From the IMG/VR virus record IMGVR_UViG_2585427789_000011: a stretch of 6,545 nucleotides of DNA. The stretch is one strand, 5' to 3'. The notes below the pieces were generated by a model. The model was given only the letters and a program-made list of their open reading frames with translations. It did no database searches and was not told the DNA's origin. A program made the translations under genes and the position numbers. Source of the stretch: a virus (Duplodnaviria; Heunggongvirae; Uroviricota; Caudoviricetes). Below, piece by piece: positions 1 through 6,545 of the stretch; the stretch's first letter is position 1; each line of letters starts with the position of its first letter.

Positions 1-272
1 GACAGCAGGCTCATAAGACGCCCCAGCGTCGCCATAGTGCGTTCACCGAATACGTGCGCAACAACCGTCTTCCGGAGACTGTCATACGCGTAAAACAGCC
101 AGCGCTGGCGCGATTTAGCCCCGACATAGCCCCACTGTTCGTCCATTTCCGCGCAGACGATGACGTCACTGCCCGGCTGTATGCGCGAGGTTACCGACTG
201 CGGCCTGAGTTTTTTAAGTGACGTAAAATCGTGTTGAGGCCAACGCCCATAATGCGGGCAGTTGCCCGGCAT
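1..272 (-). CDS. insB: IS1 transposase InsB, N-terminal 90 codons only (3' end outside window)
   Basis: ATG at 272-270 (minus); translation [91 protein letters not shown] matches recalled InsB; overlaps the insA 3' end in another frame, as expected for the IS1 InsAB' frameshift arrangement. Confidence 0.85.
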
Positions 273-466
273 CCAACGCCATTCATGGCCATATCAATGA
301 TTTTCTGGTGCGTACCGGGTTGAGAAGCGGTGTAAGTGAACTGCAGTTGCCATGTTTTACGGCAGTGAGAGCAGAGATAGCGCTGATGTCCGGCGGTGCT
401 TTTGCCGTTACGCACCACCCCGTCAGTAGCTGAACAGGAGGGACAGCTGATAGAAACAGAAGCCAC
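191..466 (-). CDS. insA: IS1 InsA (transposition regulator and N-terminal part of the InsAB' transposase)
   Basis: 91-aa ORF in the track: [40 protein letters not shown]...LKNSGRSR, matching recalled IS1 InsA with its N-terminal zinc-finger cysteines. Confidence 0.95.
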
Positions 467-498
467 TGGAGCACCTCAAAAACACCATCATACACTAA

Positions 499-521
499 AT
501 CAGTAAGTTGGCAGCATCACC
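499..521. repeat. IS1 terminal inverted repeat (insA-proximal end)
   Basis: 23 bp whose reverse complement is GGTGATGCTGCCAACTTACTGAT; sits 33 bp beyond the insA start, consistent with IS1 geometry. Confidence 0.8.
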
Positions 522-569
522 CGGCGAGTAAGTAGTACGCATCTTACCTCTTTTTTAGAGATAACCATT

Positions 570-680
570 ATGACAATAGAAAAACACGAAAGAAGCACTA
601 AGGATTTGGTGAAAGCAGCAGTATCGGGATGGCTGGGCACTGCGCTTGAATTTATGGATTTCAAGAGTCATGCGTGTTAA
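570..680 (+). pseudogene. ydfJ: 5' fragment (36 codons) of an MFS metabolite:H+ symporter gene, probably the ydfJ-type host target disrupted by prophage integration
   Basis: ATG 570-572; translation MTIEKHERSTKDLVKAAVSGWLGTALEFMDFKSHAC* carries the LGxALEF/WxDF motif typical of ProP/KgtP-family transporter N-termini, then ends after MDF about 20 bp before the integrase stop. I recall that Qin of K-12 interrupts ydfJ; the symbol is by recall and position only. Confidence 0.45.
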
Positions 681-700
681 CTATTTGATAAATATTAAAT
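640..700. other. Candidate attL junction (host/prophage boundary); the exact core cannot be defined without the attR or attB copy
   Basis: Transporter reading frame breaks after ...ALEFMDF around 660-665; integrase stop codon at 700-702. Inference from gene arrangement. Confidence 0.3.
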
Positions 701-1980
701 TAATTTTTCATTGCTTCGTTATGGGGCATGGTTGGGGCAAACTCGCTTAACTGTGTATTTAACAAAGCTACCTGTGCATTATTGTTTTCAGACATCCATT
801 TTCCGTATACCTTAAATACCATTTGCGCATCTGCATGGCCCATCTGGTTTGCTATAAATGCCGGGTTAGCACCAGCTGTCAGCGACCAGCAGGCATAAGT
901 ATGTCTCGACTGATATGATTTTCGATGGCGGAGTCCGGCACGTTTTATCGCTGCGTCCCACATCTGCCTTATTGAGTCAACGGTAAAATGGTCACCATAA
1001 TTTTTTACTCTCGCTGACACTTCAGGTTGAAAAACAAAGGTGCATTTTTGTTTTTCTGTTCTGCCATACTCTCTGAGGTGAACATCAATGATATGCTCTT
1101 TGCTCAGTCTCGTTAATGTCATCTGACTCCGGAGAGCGTCGATTGCTGGCTTAATAAGATGAATGACCCGATTGGTTCCCGCCTGTGTTTTTGGTACCGT
1201 GAAACGGTCTTTTGCTAAATTTCTCCTGATCATCATTGTTCCATTTTTCAGATCTATGTCCTCCCATCCAAGTGCACACAGCTCACCAGGGCGAACGCCA
1301 GTATAAACAGAAACACACCATAAATTTTTTGCTTGCTGATTTCTGCACGCATCGATAAGACGGATAAATTCCTCCCGCGAAAGAGGATCCGGAATGGTTC
1401 TTGATTCCTTTAATGGCGAGATCCCCTTAAACGGATTATCTGGCAGGTAACCGTTATCAACACCAAACTGGAACACGGCGTTAAGATTTGTCATGTAATT
1501 ATTTACAGTTACAGCCGATCTCCCTGGTTGTGTAACAATATAGTTACTTTTGGGGATCTGGTATCCAGTCAGTAGCTCTTTACGAACCTCCAGTAATTTT
1601 TCTTTATTAATCGATGAGGCAAGATTTTTTTCACCGATTATGCTCAGGATATTTTTGATGACGGCACGGTATGTGTTGAGTGATGTTTTGGCGACTTCAG
1701 TTTCTTTCAGTGCCAGAAATTTTTCAGCCAGTTCTTTTATGGTTAAATCTTGTCGGGCCTCACCAAATTTTTCCAGATTGCGTGAGGAGGGAAACTGTTT
1801 TGCATAGTCGAAAACACCAGTTTTTATTGCGTAACAAACAGAGGAGCGTAGTTCACCTGCAACGCGCCTGTTTTTTGCTGTGTCAGGAACCCCCAGATTT
1901 TCCCTGACTCTTACGCCTTTATAAACAAACCAGATACGTAATTTCCCTCCATGGTTTTCCACGCCTGTCGGATATTTCAT
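700..1980 (-). CDS. int: Phage tyrosine integrase (site-specific recombinase), Rac/Qin IntR-like
   Basis: ORF 700-1995. Translation has tyrosine-recombinase hallmarks: VYTGVRPGELCALGWEDID (box I Arg), RHTYACWSL (H-x-x-R) and a C-terminal MVFKVYGKWM tyrosine. The N-terminus MKYPTGVENHGGKLRIWF resembles recalled IntR-type N-termini, so I place the start at the ATG at 1980-1978; the ATG at 1995 is an alternative 5 codons upstream. Confidence 0.9.
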   Translation of the reverse strand: MKYPTGVENHGGKLRIWFVYKGVRVRENLGVPDTAKNRRVAGELRSSVCYAIKTGVFDYAKQFPSSRNLEKFGEARQDLTIKELAEKFLALKETEVAKTSLNTYRAVIKNILSIIGEKNLASSINKEKLLEVRKELLTGYQIPKSNYIVTQPGRSAVTVNNYMTNLNAVFQFGVDNGYLPDNPFKGISPLKESRTIPDPLSREEFIRLIDACRNQQAKNLWCVSVYTGVRPGELCALGWEDIDLKNGTMMIRRNLAKDRFTVPKTQAGTNRVIHLIKPAIDALRSQMTLTRLSKEHIIDVHLREYGRTEKQKCTFVFQPEVSARVKNYGDHFTVDSIRQMWDAAIKRAGLRHRKSYQSRHTYACWSLTAGANPAFIANQMGHADAQMVFKVYGKWMSENNNAQVALLNTQLSEFAPTMPHNEAMKN

Positions 1981-2014
1981 TTCAACTTCTCTCATTAGTT
2001 AGTGTGGCTTTTAG

Positions 2015-2266
2015 TCAAGTAAGATGACGTCTTGGTCTCGCTGATGCCTGGCGCTCAATCCAGCGATCAATTTCTTCCAGGTTGTAAAAGCATGGACTGT
2101 TATCCCATGGCATACCGTCATGAGCGACATGCTTATATTCCCTTCCTTCCATAAACGATTTTTCCCGGGCCTTTTTTAACGTACCTTTTTTTATACCTTT
2201 CAGCGCAATTAACTGCTCTTCGGATACCCATTTGCCGGGAGAGACAATCATGATTACTTCGCTCAT
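2015..2266 (-). CDS. xis: Excisionase-like / phage transcriptional regulator (Xis, AlpA-like)
   Basis: 83-aa ORF directly upstream of int, stop 19 nt before the int ORF. Pattern ...SPGKWVSEEQLIALKGIKKGTLKKAREKSFMEGREYKHVAHDGMPWDNSPCFYNLEEIDRWIE resembles the recalled Rac excisionase-like YdaQ/XisR. Alternative start at the ATG at 2251. Confidence 0.65.
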   Translation of the reverse strand: MSEVIMIVSPGKWVSEEQLIALKGIKKGTLKKAREKSFMEGREYKHVAHDGMPWDNSPCFYNLEEIDRWIERQASARPRRHLT

Positions 2267-2338
2267 CGATTTCTTTATCTCTTACATCAGACGAGCGCCG
2301 GTTGCAGAATACCAGTCACAACCGGCGACAGTTGAACA

Positions 2339-3418
2339 TTAAGAATCAGCCTGACTCGGGATCAGTTTTTGCCAGATAACTGAAACGTATTTTGCCTGGT
2401 AACGGGCGTCATCAAGTGCATTATGGCGCTCACCTTCGAATGGAATAGCCGTTCTGGCATCGAAGTCTATGGCTTTCCCCAGCTCAACGATTGTGCGTAC
2501 ATCGCGATCGTTGTAGTAACGCCACGGGCAGGGGATCCCCTGCCGTTCGTATGAACGGCGCAAAATCGTGTTGTCGAAGTTGGCTCCATTTCCCCAAACC
2601 TGAACAAAAAATTCACCGGAGTTTTCGTCGATAAATTCCCGCAATTGTAACAGTGCATCATCTAACGGGATTTCATCGGTCATAATGGCAGATTGCGCTT
2701 CGCGTGATTGCTTAAGCCACCATTTAATGGTGTCCCGATCAATGACTCCGCCAGCAGTTTCCAGATCGATAGTCTTACTAAATTCCGGTCCCATATCTCC
2801 GGTTTGCGGATCGAAAAATATTGCACCTATTGAGATGATCGGGGCATCAGGATTTTTTCCCATGGTTTCAAGGTCGATCATTAGATGGTCACACGTCCTG
2901 CTGGTGGATGTGATTTCGTGATGACCGTTCACCTTAATTGAGTGATCTGCCGTCTCGCCAGTTTCATTATCGCTATTGTGATGCTGATTGCCGCCAGTGT
3001 TCTCCTTGTGTGGATGTTCAGCGCCTTCCATTTCCTCCGGATCATCTTCCTGAACTTCAACCTGATACTCTTCATCGAATGTTTCTTGGTATGTTGCGTC
3101 GCCCATCACCGCGCCACAATCAGGGCAGTTGCCGCCGCCGGTCTGACCGCAGGCGGTGCAGACTTTTTCCACTTCCTGTTGCACCACTGGTTCAGGCTGT
3201 TTCGTTTCTGGCTCGTTTTGTAACGCATTTGGGCTGTTTTGTTCCGCTTTCTGGTAGTTCCGTTCCGATTCATGCTGGTTCTGGTTCACAGAATCGCGGG
3301 TCTGGATCCCCTTAACCCATTTCGGATCATTCGGGTCACTAATCCCTTCAACAAATTCACCACGTGATGCAGCAAGCAACTTATCGGCGTCAGGCTGGCT
3401 GATATTGGCTGCCTGCAT
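2339..3418 (-). CDS. DnaQ-like DEDDh 3'-5' exonuclease-domain protein with an acidic, Cys-containing N-terminal region; 5' boundary uncertain
   Basis: C-terminal 190 aa carry Exo I (MIDLETMG), Exo II ([12 protein letters not shown]) and Exo III ([13 protein letters not shown]) motifs. N-terminal half is Q/E/D-rich with a [16 protein letters not shown] zinc-ribbon-like cluster. The track ORF extends to 3652, but the first 78 codons overlap the upstream gene and look non-coding; the ATG at 3418-3416 is the first start downstream of the upstream gene's stop, with a weak SD. Confidence 0.7.
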
Positions 3419-3434
3419 AATTTTGTTTACTTCG

Positions 3435-3779
3435 TCAGCGGTAACTTTTACCGGCTCTGGCTGTGCGGTCTTCAGAGGCACCAACATTTTGCGGTAAACC
3501 CGAGTATGTACCATTTTTGCGGGCAAAATATTCTTCTTTCGTGATTTCAGTAGCCCCAGCAGCCAGCGCCTTATCCAGACCAGAAAGTTTGTTTGCGCGA
3601 CCGTATTTTTCGCCATCCTTATCGGCGAAGAGGAAATAGAACGGCCCCTCACGCTCTACAGATGGTTCAACTTCCACCGCGCATTCAGTTTTTGCGATAT
3701 CAGATACCCGTTTCCACTGCATCAGTTTCTGGTACTGACGACGAGAGAACATCAACAGCGCCCAGATCTCTTCCTTCAT
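3435..3779 (-). CDS. Hypothetical protein (114 aa from the ATG at 3779; the track ORF begins at a GTG at 3788)
   Basis: ORF 3435-3788, translation ...[90 protein letters not shown]... with balanced composition. Its 3' part overlaps the long exonuclease-frame ORF. No recognisable family. Confidence 0.5.
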
Positions 3780-3799
3780 CTCAAACACGCCCTTTGTAG

Positions 3800-4804
3800 T
3801 CAGGTATTCGCAATATATTTGTTCAGTGCCACAGGATCTTTGTGAATGTCGATCGGACGCTCACGGACAAGGCCAAAAATAGTCTGGCGGTCGTAGCGAA
3901 GGGCATCAGGCTGTTTGCGCATCGATGCCGAGATACGCTTCCAGTCTTCGCGGTCGTTGTCGATAACTTCATTTTTTGCCCAGCGATGGATGCTGCCGTC
4001 AATGTTTCCGGCATCCACATCACCAGGCCAGAGAGCGTAGGCCAGTTCGTCATCCAGTGTTTTCCATGTCTGCTTGTATTCGCGATGAATGGCAGCAATG
4101 ACCGGGCTGATTTTTCCTGTTGAATTTTCAGTGTACTGTTGATTGGCTCTGGCGCGGGCGAGATCAACAACAGACGTGTATTTTCCGGTTTCCTTGCGTT
4201 CACCTTCGCGACGTTTTTTCCAGATGCGCATCTCTGCCTGAATTTCGGGCCATTTGGCACTAGGAATACATTTATGCTTAACCCACCCGATGGCATGCAG
4301 CTTAAGCTCCGGATACATGGCGTTAACTTCTGGCATTTTCATCAACGCTTCAACGATATGTCCGTCGAATGTTGCCATGTCTTCCTGCAACAATTCCTGC
4401 GCGCTAATCACCATATCAACGGTGATGTTTTCACATGTACCGAACTTAACCAGGACCGCGTTCTGTACTTCAAGGGACAGCTTGTCAAAATTGACGATCA
4501 TCGGATCGGATTCTGGTTCGACCGGGACAAAGGAAGCGCCTTCCTCATCCCAGCGGTTTTCCAGCATATATTCGGTATCCCAGGAGTCGATGGCAGGGCG
4601 GGGCATGCCGGGTTTATCCTCGCAGACAAGAAATTTATAAGCGCAGTCCTGAGCAGCCGGATATTGCTCCAGGAATTGCCAGGTAAATTTGGCACGGGCG
4701 CGACGTTCGTCGCCGGCTTCAATGGCAGTGGCTACAGCGACTGCACCTTCTTCCTTTATTGCCTGTTCGTCCGGAATGGCGGCGCAAATAAAGACTTTAC
4801 TCAT
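3800..4804 (-). CDS. Hypothetical prophage protein, 334 aa (sits where ydfE lies relative to ydfD/dicB in K-12 Qin, by recall)
   Basis: Long ORF with protein-like composition (MSKVFICAAIPDEQAIKEEG...), GAGG about 11 nt upstream of the ATG, same strand and tight spacing with flanking genes. The antisense 230-aa ORF is F/H/C-rich and looks spurious. No motif recognised by eye. Confidence 0.7.
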   Translation of the reverse strand: MSKVFICAAIPDEQAIKEEGAVAVATAIEAGDERRARAKFTWQFLEQYPAAQDCAYKFLVCEDKPGMPRPAIDSWDTEYMLENRWDEEGASFVPVEPESDPMIVNFDKLSLEVQNAVLVKFGTCENITVDMVISAQELLQEDMATFDGHIVEALMKMPEVNAMYPELKLHAIGWVKHKCIPSAKWPEIQAEMRIWKKRREGERKETGKYTSVVDLARARANQQYTENSTGKISPVIAAIHREYKQTWKTLDDELAYALWPGDVDAGNIDGSIHRWAKNEVIDNDREDWKRISASMRKQPDALRYDRQTIFGLVRERPIDIHKDPVALNKYIANT

Positions 4805-4884
4805 TTTGTTTTAACCTCATTACAGATTTAAGGGTGAACAAATCCCTGCCATTGCTGGCATATAAAAATGAAACCGGATATTAA

Positions 4885-5088
4885 TTACGGTGCTGTTTTA
4901 AGTCCTGCCGGGATTTCGTTATTATCCATGTGAATAACTTTATCGACCGGATAACAGTTACCGGGAATTTTCTGTTCCGCTGCGGCAACCATGCATTCTT
5001 TCATTGAGCCGTATACGCCAGTAACCATGTCAACCGGTTCACCGGAAACAAGAAAAACCGTCAGAACAAGTGCAAATGTAGTATTCAT
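4885..5088 (-). CDS. ydfD: YdfD-like small membrane protein (prophage lysis-type protein), 67 aa
   Basis: Translation MNTTFALVLTVFLVSGEPVDMVTGVYGSMKECMVAAAEQKIPGNCYPVDKVIHMDNNEIPAGLKTAP has an N-terminal hydrophobic segment. Start ATG 5088-5086 overlaps the dicB TGA stop (ATGA), with AAGGA 8 nt upstream. Identity by position immediately downstream of dicB and recalled Qin gene order. Confidence 0.65.
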   Translation of the reverse strand: MNTTFALVLTVFLVSGEPVDMVTGVYGSMKECMVAAAEQKIPGNCYPVDKVIHMDNNEIPAGLKTAP

Positions 5089-5273
5089 TGCCAGCATCCT
5101 TTTTGCATCAGGCGTAAACGGGCCAGCATTGAAACAATGCATATTTTATTTAATAGCTCCCGTTCTTGTTTTCTCTTGTTAATGGCATCTTCAGTAAATA
5201 CTGGGTTACTGATAGTGACACCAATTTCAAAACAACCTTCAGACGTATTAACGTTTGGTAATAACGTTTCCAT
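5085..5273 (-). CDS. dicB: Cell-division inhibitor DicB (activates MinC-dependent inhibition of FtsZ), 62 aa
   Basis: From the ATG at 5273: METLLPNVNTSEGCFEIGVTISNPVFTEDAINKRKQERELLNKICIVSMLARLRLMQKGCWQ, near-identical to recalled K-12 DicB (MKTLLPNVNTSEGCFEIGV...). GAGGA SD at 5281-5285, 7 nt upstream. The track's longer ORF (to 5345) is an in-frame upstream extension without an RBS. Confidence 0.85.
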   Translation of the reverse strand: METLLPNVNTSEGCFEIGVTISNPVFTEDAINKRKQERELLNKICIVSMLARLRLMQKGCWQ

Positions 5274-5290
5274 TATCGCGTCCTCAACAA

Positions 5291-5446
5291 TGAATTTTGT
5301 GATGCGGCGCCTGGTGCCTCCAGGTGACGTTAACCAGTAAACCATTAACGCCGGATTGTTAGTTGATGTCTGTTACGCAAGTAAAAGACCGCTTGTTTTA
5401 ACTGTTCCGCGTGCGCTGAGCCGCATTCACCGCATCACAAAATTCA
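5291..5446 (-). promoter_or_regulatory. 17-bp perfect long-range inverted repeat in the dicF-dicB spacer; candidate RNase III processing duplex or translational control structure in the dicB 5' UTR
   Basis: Plus 5291-5307 (TGAATTTTGTGATGCGG) is the exact reverse complement of plus 5430-5446 (CCGCATCACAAAATTCA). One arm abuts the DicF terminator, the other lies 6 nt upstream of the dicB SD. A 17-mer repeat is not expected by chance in 6.5 kb. Confidence 0.45.
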
Positions 5447-5450
5447 CTTT

Positions 5451-5493
5451 AAAAGGGGCGGGTATCACGGGAAAAACAAAACGAATACCCGCC
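5451..5493 (-). terminator. Intrinsic terminator forming the DicF 3' end
   Basis: 9-bp stem GGCGGGTAT (5457-5465) / ATACCCGCC (5485-5493) with a 19-nt loop, followed on the minus strand by CC-UUUU. Confidence 0.55.
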
Positions 5494-5509
5494 AAAAGGT
5501 AATCAACAT
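5451..5509 (-). ncRNA. dicF: DicF-like small regulatory RNA (Hfq-dependent inhibitor of ftsZ and other targets in K-12), variant sequence
   Basis: Minus-strand sequence CAUGUUGAUUACCUUUUGGCGGGUAUUCGUUUUGUUUUUCCCGUGAUACCCGCCCCUUUU lies about 180 nt upstream of dicB, matching the recalled K-12 dicF-dicB spacing of about 185 nt. It shares the UUUGGCGG...GUUUU...CCGUGA...GCCGCCC-UUUU pattern with recalled K-12 DicF. The 5' end is set by analogy, not determined. Confidence 0.6.
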
Positions 5510-5790
5510 GGGTTGTTGTAGCGGAGTTGTCACTCAGGCGTATGGTCAACCTGACAACCCGGTGTCCTCAACGGGGAAGGAATAACCCCGCCATACTTAC
5601 CGCCGCGCCATTTCGCGGAGTGCCACAACCGGAAGCGCACGGTCGACGAAAATTTAACGACAGGCTATCTATGAACCAGCAACCTCGCCGTGCGCTTTCG
5701 CGTTATGCTCTGACTTTTCAGAGAAATATCCTTTCAGTAAACTGTCAGTGCCGGATGTTCACCCGTGGAGAACTCCTTAATTACCAACCC
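5509..5790. other. G+C-rich, hairpin-dense non-coding segment (candidate structured RNA or regulatory/recombination region); strand unknown
   Basis: About 60% G+C by hand count over 5521-5640, against AT-rich flanks. Perfect stems at 5526-5532/5552-5558 (7 bp), 5572-5576/5586-5590 (5 bp), 5603-5607/5614-5618 (5 bp) and 5633-5642/5688-5697 (10 bp, 45-nt spacer). No minus-strand ORF longer than about 15 codons; the only plus-strand ORF is Arg-rich with rare Arg codons. Confidence 0.4.
5715..5743 (+). promoter_or_regulatory. Weak candidate sigma70 promoter for the 77-aa gene
   Basis: TTTTCA (5715-5720), 17-bp spacer, TAAACT (5738-5743); 4/6 match to each consensus hexamer. Flanked by short repeats CTGAC/GTCAG and CTTTTCAG/CTTTCAG. 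By-eye call only. Confidence 0.2.
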
Positions 5791-5802
5791 TCAGGAGGGT
5801 GA

Positions 5803-6036
5803 ATGTTAAAATCAACTCTTATTGCTAAATGCCTTTATCAAAATCGCATGGTAAGCAGCATTTCAATAGGCGAGTCTGCAGTTAAAAGTATTTTCGAAGA
5901 GTACTTTTCCGGGCATGATTTTAATAAATGGAATACCAAATTACCGCCAGCAGTTTCAACGCGTATTCTGAAAGCAACTGAAAGAGCAAGTACAATTCGC
6001 GTTAACTATTTCATTAAAGATTTGTGGGATCTTTGA
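5803..6036 (+). CDS. Hypothetical small protein, 77 aa, transcribed opposite to the dicB operon
   Basis: ATG 5803 preceded by AGGAGG (5793-5798, 4-nt spacer); AT-rich coding sequence MLKSTLIAKCLYQNRMVSSISIGESAVKSIFEEYFSGHDFNKWNTKLPPAVSTRILKATERASTIRVNYFIKDLWDL; no similarity recognised. Confidence 0.55.
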   Translation: MLKSTLIAKCLYQNRMVSSISIGESAVKSIFEEYFSGHDFNKWNTKLPPAVSTRILKATERASTIRVNYFIKDLWDL

Positions 6037-6421
6037 TATCCACAGAGCCTAAAGTATGTGCATATGGATGTGCTATTGTGCGCCCTCGCAGATTTGCATC
6101 ATTTTCTAAATTCACTGAACGAAACAGGGCATCAACAAGGCTCTGTACAATGCAAAGGCAATCGAAGACTGTCGCCGTTTCTGTTTTGATTGATGAAAGA
6201 ACATGGCCATTCACGCAAACAGAAATTACCCGTTTATTAACATCGCTTTCCTGCTTTTGATTATCAGAACCATATAGCCCAGAAAAAGCATTGCGCACAT
6301 TACGAACCATATTATCGATGGTTTCTTTTTTGGTGTATGCCGGGTCAATTTTCACCAGACTATCACCGAGTGTCGTTGCAGCAATTATCTGGATTTCTTT
6401 TGGTAAATCTTTAAATTCCAT
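6014..6421 (-). CDS. Hypothetical protein, 135 aa, convergent with and overlapping the 77-aa gene by 23 nt
   Basis: ATG 6421 with GAGG 7 nt upstream; translation MEFKDLPKEIQIIAATTLGDSLVKIDPAYTKKETIDNMVRNVRNAFSGLYGSDNQ... protein-like; no HTH or other motif recognised. Not DicA-like despite the same length. Confidence 0.6.
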   Translation of the reverse strand: MEFKDLPKEIQIIAATTLGDSLVKIDPAYTKKETIDNMVRNVRNAFSGLYGSDNQKQESDVNKRVISVCVNGHVLSSIKTETATVFDCLCIVQSLVDALFRSVNLENDANLRGRTIAHPYAHTLGSVDIKDPTNL

Positions 6422-6443
6422 TATTAGCCTCGTTGGTTAACCA

Positions 6444-6545
6444 TTAACGTGGGTATGTAATCATTCTGGCAATGCTTAATGCCGCTGCTTTTTCCAGATT
6501 GGTGATATCCTGCTCCAGAGCGGACAGATTTTCAGCCTGCTTAGC
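6444..6545 (-). CDS. 3' end (33 codons) of an upstream minus-strand gene, product unknown
   Basis: Open frame from the window edge: ...AKQAENLSALEQDITNLEKAAALSIARMITYPR* with TAA at 6446-6444, 22 nt upstream of the 135-aa gene start. Too short to identify. Confidence 0.4.
   Translation of the reverse strand, partial: AKQAENLSALEQDITNLEKAAALSIARMITYPR

Follow-up and report, generated by a model that had tools for sequence, protein, structure and literature searches.

A frame break in a lambdoid prophage exonuclease gene of Escherichia coli is very probably an assembly artefact of two merged alleles

The DNA analysed here, referred to as the window, covers 6,545 nucleotides and is the entire contig JOSP01000066.1 of assembly GCA_000713785.1, from Escherichia coli 2-222-05_S4_C3. 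The isolate came from a study of Tanzanian children (PMC6222053), and its genome was assembled with MaSuRCA 2.3.2 from 100-bp HiSeq reads (PMC6222053 and its Table S1). The sibling isolate 2_222_05_S4_C2 was ST484 and O7:H4, as was 2_222_05_S4_C3 (PMC6222053, Table S1). The window corresponds to the left arm of a lambdoid prophage of the Rac/Qin type. Its features are given below, X and Y designating two alleles of the exonuclease gene and the prophages to which they belong.

1 to ~521, end of an IS1 element, with insA at 191..466
700..1995, minus strand, integrase (int), on the prophage X side
2015..2266, minus strand, excisionase (xis), on the prophage X side
1..3141, minus strand, pure allele and prophage X context: 3' part of the exonuclease gene, xis, int and the IS1 end
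2339..4804, minus strand, exonuclease gene as deposited, 2,466 nt versus 2,472 nt and 823 aa in intact homologues (aligned to L001, L002, L012 and L182, described below)
2339..3652, minus strand, ORF3, C-terminal part of the gene, open back to 3652, with an Rv2179c-like DEDD 3'-5' exonuclease domain at ~2372-2887
3435..3788, minus strand, ORF2, 117 aa, in the ancestral frame only from ~3710 to 3470, no Pfam hit
3800..4804, minus strand, ORF1, 334 aa, covering the N-terminus of the gene product, with YdfE_N/YdfE_C according to the precomputed Pfam table, closed by an apparently false stop after the first 1-nt loss
~3142..4250, zone of tie-break consensus, A>C>G>T on the plus strand, identical in contig JOSP01000052.1 and ending where the two contigs part
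4251..6545, minus strand, pure allele and prophage Y context: a 135-aa gene, dicB, DUF1482/ydfD, and 550 nt at the 5' end of the exonuclease gene

The original prediction had described two ORFs overlapping by about 218 nt at the 5' end of an exonuclease gene, the frame of ORF3 (frame B) being +1 relative to that of ORF2 (frame A). The list of ORFs agreed exactly, with a shared stretch of 218 nt at 3435-3652 between the ORF open to 3652 and the 117-aa ORF ending at 3435, and so did the codon phases (3788 mod 3 = 2, 3652 mod 3 = 1). The first ATG of ORF3, at 3418, and the A-runs of the overlap, CGCAAAAATGG near 3512-3522 and CGCAAAATG near 3489-3497, were also located in the sequence. The break between frames A and B turned out to be one of three within a single gene: the stop at 3800-3802 closes the 334-aa ORF, which has the same phase as the exonuclease ORF, and the deposited sequence holds three ORFs in place of an uninterrupted one of ~2,472 nt. 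The first ~26 and the last ~10 codons of ORF2 were frameshifted nonsense.

In a Pfam scan, PF16473 was returned for residues 178-349 of the 359-aa product of ORF3 (E=5e-68) and for the C-terminal part of the intact X protein (E=2e-67). YdfE_N and YdfE_C are given by the precomputed table at the N-terminus of both the 334-aa product and intact 823-aa proteins; the local scan returned them for neither protein, its model set probably lacking them. The exact 334-aa product occurred on two contigs of one assembly only among ~15 billion proteins. The first 3,404 nt of the second contig, JOSP01000052.1, were 100% identical to window positions 6545..3142 from its first base, and beyond this shared part JOSP01000052.1 carried a different excisionase and integrase.

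Megablast located the region 3300-3900 in 4,686 of the 5,426 complete E. coli genomes as well as in several phages, and one feature, 'exonuclease', spanned the whole stretch in every one of the matches listed. The comparison with homologues, proposed in the original prediction as the way to decide between one gene and two, gave a continuous single ORF of 2,472 nt (823 aa) in ~3,600 complete E. coli genomes, and likewise in several phages; examples are E2865 (L001, WP_000048369.1) and phage HannyBb (L002, XNS40216.1). The intact 823-aa protein WP_094258941.1 was present in E. coli AST19 (L012) and EC0026B. Many E. coli genomes were multi-copy for the gene, with a median of two places per genome. 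The exception to the single ORF was the PPompW_EH1846 phage record, in which the copy is annotated as a frameshifted pseudogene. Among the complete genomes and phage copies inspected, the two-ORF arrangement and its shift site were conserved nowhere outside three suspect assemblies, and two separate genes with the same stop and start were not found. The relatives thus keep one continuous gene over both frames, which speaks against the genuine long overlap that had been offered as one reading.

The departure from the intact alleles was concentrated in a short patch, which contained four small losses.

3440..3834, diverged patch, X and Y ~22% different, all four deletions inside
3809..3813, minus strand, candidate false deletion 1, 1 nt lost, X ATATCTGCGAA and Y ACATTACTGAA giving ATATTGCGAA
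3777..3781, minus strand, candidate false deletion 2, 1 nt lost, X TTTGAGAATGAAGA and Y TTTGAAGATGAAGG giving TTTGAGATGAAGG
3700..3710, minus strand, candidate false deletion 3, 2 nt lost
3467..3473, minus strand, candidate false deletion 4, 2 nt lost, the break between frames A and B, in the non-homopolymer sequence TCTGAAGACCGC

The patch was ~10-15% different from every known allele and ~12% from E2865, versus 0-1% from E2865 in the adjoining sequence. In the ~3,600 complete E. coli genomes that have the gene, the best identity to 3430-3840 was 90.2%, and the equivalent segment measured 417 nt in all of these matches as against 411 nt in the window. Natural alleles differ mutually by up to 24% in the patch, and the window had almost no private bases there. 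In the alignment to intact alleles the losses (-1, -1, -2 and -2 nt) lay near 3813, 3780, 3710 and 3467, and no indel was seen at either A-run. It is because of these losses that one ORF is cut into three. Both frames look coding near 3440-3520 because each of them is the ancestral frame on one side of the last loss, frame A upstream and frame B downstream. Sequencing noise or hypermutation in the patch was considered and rejected: the differences from X in the conserved stretch were almost all synonymous and almost none was private to the window.

For comparison, 76 distinct intact alleles were gathered from IMG/VR and genomes. The single allele closest to the window differed at 46 sites, and with one pair of alleles everything was accounted for apart from six gap columns and two bases. 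A mosaic model needed 34 switches at best, against a median of 1 and at most 10 when real alleles were left out one at a time. X (L012), taken as the first parent, came from AST19 and EC0026B, reference genomes with the downstream context of the window (xis, int, IS1, rspB). The second, Y (L182), came from genomes with the 135-aa upstream gene and with DUF4224 and an integrase downstream, and was found only by way of this 135-aa gene. Both are proxies taken from strains other than 2-222-05_S4_C3. The combination of L012 (rspB site) with L011 (mtfA/tRNA-Ser site) as parents was rejected, both having an X-type patch.

X and Y are of equal length and can be aligned without gaps, with 206 differing sites along the gene. 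The window was identical to Y at the first 54 of these sites and to X at the last ~45, and was interleaved between them. It showed no mismatch with Y in positions 1-600 of the gene (window 4804-~4205), and downstream of ~3410 no more than one mismatch per 200 nt with X. Across the 2,472 columns of the gene, only two substitutions and six lost bases fell outside X and Y. A runs test gave 42 runs for 43.4 expected. Since a midpoint allele of X and Y would alternate as well, this alternation excludes a recombinant without establishing an artefact.

In the mixed zone, the base kept at a difference between X and Y depended on the base itself, whichever allele supplied it. The rule was A>C>G>T on the plus strand of the contig, that is, T>G>C>A on the gene strand. 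It was obeyed at 94 of 107 sites from 4300 to 3226 (p=2.6e-16) and at 76 of 85 sites in the patch, where eight of the nine exceptions fell at the four deletion sites, at which ungapped columns mis-pair the bases. Control zones were at chance, with 22/49 in the pure-Y and 21/45 in the pure-X sequence. By pair of bases on the gene strand, the counts were as follows.

A/G, G kept at 31 of 34 sites
C/T, T kept at 29 of 33 sites
A/C, C kept at 12 of 13 sites
A/T, T kept at 12 of 14 sites
C/G, G kept at 6 of 7 sites
G/T, T kept at 4 of 6 sites

Past position 3142, where the window is pure X, JOSP01000052.1 obeyed the rule for 22 further consecutive sites. Segment 4250..3226 of the window was then rebuilt from X and Y with the base-order rule, a gap beating any base, and four compensating gap pairs (1+1, 1+1, 2+2 and 2+2) each within 9 nt. 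This reconstruction returned 1,017 of 1,019 bases, the two misses being at 3639 and 3455. A looser three-way dynamic-programming alignment, accepting the base of either parent, had given no mismatch, but was too permissive, with one gap pair 116 nt apart, and was replaced by the strict-rule version. In a unit-cost alignment of X with Y made without the window, the gap pairs 3812/3809 and 3473-3467 were strictly favoured, and 3781/3779 and 3709/3700 were co-optimal. The gap pairs matched the observed sizes of the losses at all four sites, and the sole other favoured pair in the gene lay in the unmixed Y zone. Over ~1.1 kb, the deposited sequence is what one X and one Y give when the ties of their consensus are broken column by column.

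The same patch was present in other assemblies. The 114-aa called product had just two relatives in the protein collection, in E. coli P0304816.3, on two contigs of one assembly, and in GCA_001911865.1. Their patches were 1-2 nt from that of the window with the same four losses, and the three contigs concerned obeyed the rule at 74-75 of 81 patch sites. Outside the patch both mixed X and Y differently from the window, and in P0304816.3 the mixing reached further, with three or four more deletions. These two assemblies are old drafts. A 27-mer specific to the mosaic had no match in the GTDB representatives, where a single genome per species makes the absence weak evidence, in metagenome contigs or in IMG/VR, and the corresponding 28-mers of X and of Y were each found in at least 120 IMG/VR contigs. 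The junction k-mers specific to the mosaic include GTTTGAGATGAAGGAAGAGATCTGGGC and TCTGAAGACCGCACAGCC.

We propose that the frame break is an artefact of assembly, in which two prophage alleles were merged and consensus ties were settled by symbol order; judged from the consensus sequence, on which this reading is built, we hold it to be very probable. The strain would possess two lambdoid prophages whose copies of the 823-aa exonuclease gene are different alleles: X in a prophage next to rspB and IS1, and Y in a prophage with the DUF4224 excisionase and a 341-aa integrase. The Celera-type back end of MaSuRCA would have overlapped a Y piece ending near 3142 with an X piece starting near 4250. 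In a 1:1 pile-up of two equally weighted sequences every X/Y difference would become a tie, and ties would be settled in a fixed order, a gap being preferred, then A, C, G and T on the plus strand of the contig. Where short compensating gaps separate the alleles, the bases on both sides would be lost, with net changes of -1, -1, -2 and -2. The assembler step (contig merging or bubble popping) and the symbol order of the consensus code are inferred; a tie-break symbol order is presumably written into the Celera/MaSuRCA consensus code. The overlap error rate of Celera/MaSuRCA is permissive for bacterial assemblies. The merging of sequences ~22% different locally is unusual for an assembler, and the two bases at 3639 and 3455 that the rule leaves unpredicted count as a point against an artefact.

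The interruption of the ORF is thus probably artefactual and the underlying genes are probably intact members of the 823-aa exonuclease family. The real genome most likely carries two intact exonuclease genes, and in JOSP01000066.1 an upstream Y part has probably been wrongly joined to a downstream X part. The suggestion that a single gene had been split by a 1-nt indel or a homopolymer error was right as to the single gene and the error at the sequence level; the loss, in turn, amounts to 2 nt, lies at ~3467-3473, outside the A-runs, and is one of four. The pseudogene invoked as another possibility appears to be a by-product of the assembler consensus over two prophage alleles, and not of evolutionary decay.

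Several readings in which the mosaic is real were weighed against the merger of alleles. The shared patch in three assemblies, taken alone, could be read as a real shared allele. One may imagine a decayed pseudogene allele, W, carried by both prophages here and by at least two other strains, which would stand midway between X and Y and would then have undergone four frameshift deletions. The patch is indeed common to the assemblies of three strains to within 1-2 nt, deletions included, a midpoint of X and Y would look interleaved in a way that the runs test cannot separate from a mixture, and genes of cryptic prophages do decay, a frameshifted copy being annotated in the PPompW phage records. 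We nevertheless consider allele W very unlikely. The choice of bases was set by their identity and not by the allele (94/107, p=2.6e-16, flanks at chance), and evolution has no cause to prefer, on one strand, whichever base comes first in the alphabet. Allele W would have only 1-2 private substitutions for four private frameshifts, with X and Y each at a distance of ~45 changes; neither the ~3,600 complete genomes with the gene nor the viral and metagenome collections contain it; and the mosaic zone ends exactly at the divergence of the two contigs. A variant in which a strand-asymmetric process, enriching one strand for bases early in the alphabet by comparison with both common alleles, produced a real allele of at least three E. 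coli strains, followed by four frameshifts, seems to us more improbable than W itself. The strand-asymmetric reading needs the changes C>T, A>G, G>T, A>T, C>G and A>C (plus strand) in the X and Y lineages from a W-like ancestor. The recurrence fits an artefact only if the other assemblies shared the allele pair and the consensus tie rule; a deterministic tie-break on the same common pair accounts for it equally well, and it alone explains the alphabetical rule.

A true hybrid of X and Y, arising when the resident prophages recombined and mismatch repair acted patchily on the heteroduplex, would have its substrates, both parental types being common and the gene often multi-copy, and the sequence is unmixed Y on one side and unmixed X on the other, as expected of a crossover. 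It would, however, require at least 34-41 switches within ~400 nt of sequence 22% different, in place of the few long tracts that a biological product is expected to show instead of per-site alternation. Repair should not remove bases from parents of equal length that align without gaps, nor does it choose bases alphabetically, and JOSP01000052.1 would need the identical product; such a hybrid is less credible again than the strand-asymmetric process. The chance that a homopolymer error of 1 nt in an A-run of the overlap explains the break is practically nil. There are A-runs in the overlap and the cause is indeed an error, but they contain no indel, the break being the 2-nt loss at ~3467-3473 in TCTGAAGACCGC, the data are Illumina reads, and three more losses lie upstream. 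Equally negligible, in our opinion, are two or three genuine genes with long overlaps, or a programmed +1/-2 ribosomal frameshift; the long ORFs and the protein-like character of both frames around 3440-3520 would suit them, but the homologues are one uninterrupted ORF.

If the two alleles were merged as proposed, there is no consequence for the biology of the locus and no pseudogene, overlap or recoding event to explain. At least eight GenBank proteins (KEO15983-KEO15985, KEO17491, KEO17492, ENH33641, ENH35191 and OKU47545) would be products of the artefact. A read-free test for this class of error would also be at hand, combining a per-site mosaic of two parents, an alphabetical choice of bases on one strand, and net deletions only at gap pairs; it could be applied to other drafts of the Celera/MaSuRCA era with clustered 'frameshifts' in repeated phage genes.

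The gene itself resembles the intact 823-aa 'exonuclease' of lambdoid, Rac/Qin-type prophages in its place between ydfD/DUF1482 and xis-int and in its C-terminal Rv2179c-like DEDD 3'-5' exonuclease domain. It differs in being 6 nt shorter and divided into three ORFs, and its middle 1.1 kb, a per-site blend of two alleles, equals no natural allele. In several phage records the gene is labelled RecE or exodeoxyribonuclease VIII, with which it shares the early-left operon position of Rac-like prophages and the word 'exonuclease' in the name. Its domain, unlike RecE, is of the DEDD type with an Rv2179c-like/RNase T fold; at E<=0.01 the Pfam scan returned Rv2179c-like and a weak RNase_T but nothing of the RecE family, and the 'exodeoxyribonuclease VIII' label is thus without support from the scan. 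The names YdfE_N and YdfE_C come from ydfE of the Qin prophage of E. coli K-12; the 334-aa ORF of the window, to which the precomputed table assigns both families, would be this module by itself, minus the exonuclease domain. We take ydfE of K-12 to owe its separation from the remainder of the gene to a genuine IS-associated truncation; the 334-aa ORF of the window, in contrast, would be set apart by a false stop resulting from a 1-nt consensus loss.

The proposed mechanism is close to the collapse or merging of diverged repeats in overlap-layout-consensus assemblers (Celera/CABOG in MaSuRCA), in which two copies of a near-repeat are merged, as here. Consensus errors of merged repeats likewise show the same consensus at two contig ends, a blend of the copies and the loss of gap columns. 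No published description of an alphabetical tie-break signature was found in the literature covered. The present case is set apart by the strictly alphabetical signature, which three public assemblies share; both observations were derived here from the sequence.

The base-by-base mixture of the two exonuclease alleles, X from the rspB-site prophage and Y from the second prophage, was also found, with the identical four deletions, in two further public draft assemblies, P0304816.3 (GCA_000359015.2) and GCA_001911865.1. The contigs with the recurring mosaic were:
AQBA01000035.1 (L185)
AQBA01000047.1 (L186)
LGND01000122.1 (L187)

E. coli P0304816.3 showed three or four extra deletions, at gene positions 1432, 1578, 1648 and 1918, which split the exonuclease gene into still more ORFs than in the window. 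The GenBank proteins ENH33641, ENH35191 and OKU47545, which come from the mosaic-bearing drafts, are probably likewise spurious. X and Y, together with the alphabetical tie-break rule applied at their differences, predict every base of the mixed zone except those at window positions 3639 and 3455. At 3455 the predicted base does occur in the LGND assembly, a difference corresponding to A107T in the 114-aa product called from the mosaic patch. Each of these two bases is probably a genuine strain-specific SNP of one parental allele.

The first 3404 nt of JOSP01000052.1, the second contig of the same assembly, are shared with the window contig (window 6545–3142). Beyond the contig split, positions 3405–3600 of JOSP01000052.1 (window 3141–2941) kept the tie-break rule at 22 consecutive X/Y sites, and therefore the 3′ part of the exonuclease gene in this contig is also a mixed consensus, here free of frameshift. 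The upstream end of the window carries genes of prophage Y (the 135-aa gene, dicB and DUF1482), and the downstream end corresponds to prophage X, with the DUF1233 xis, int and IS1, the latter adjoining rspB in AST19 and EC0026B. The window contig is probably a chimeric join, running from prophage Y upstream to prophage X downstream, and its synteny is for this reason unreliable. At its downstream end the contig begins inside an insertion sequence:
window 1–521, IS1 element, with the insA ORF at 191..466 on the minus strand

In the complete genomes AST19 and EC0026B, IS1A occupies the corresponding position, with the integrase on one side and rspB on the other; this end of the window is therefore a repeat-induced contig break.

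Two ORFs located upstream overlap tail to tail (window 5803–6421):
window 6014..6421, minus strand, 135-aa ORF
window 5803..6036, plus strand, 77-aa ORF

Gene calls for both ORFs are present in each of the nine full-length loci that the search for the 135-aa gene yielded, as well as in the short contig L184, and 901 blocks of the collection list the 135-aa product. Neither ORF had a match in Pfam.

Among the phage records, those of PPompW annotate their own exonuclease copy as a pseudogene, "frameshifted by deletion". One such copy is:
PPompW_EH1846 (L010, LC567839.1), 397–2864, exonuclease copy of 2468 nt

Several phage records name the gene "exodeoxyribonuclease VIII" or recE. This label looks like annotation drift, since the only domain found in the intact protein (L012:1931-4399, representing allele X) is that of a DEDD Rv2179c-like 3′-5′ exo(ribo)nuclease.
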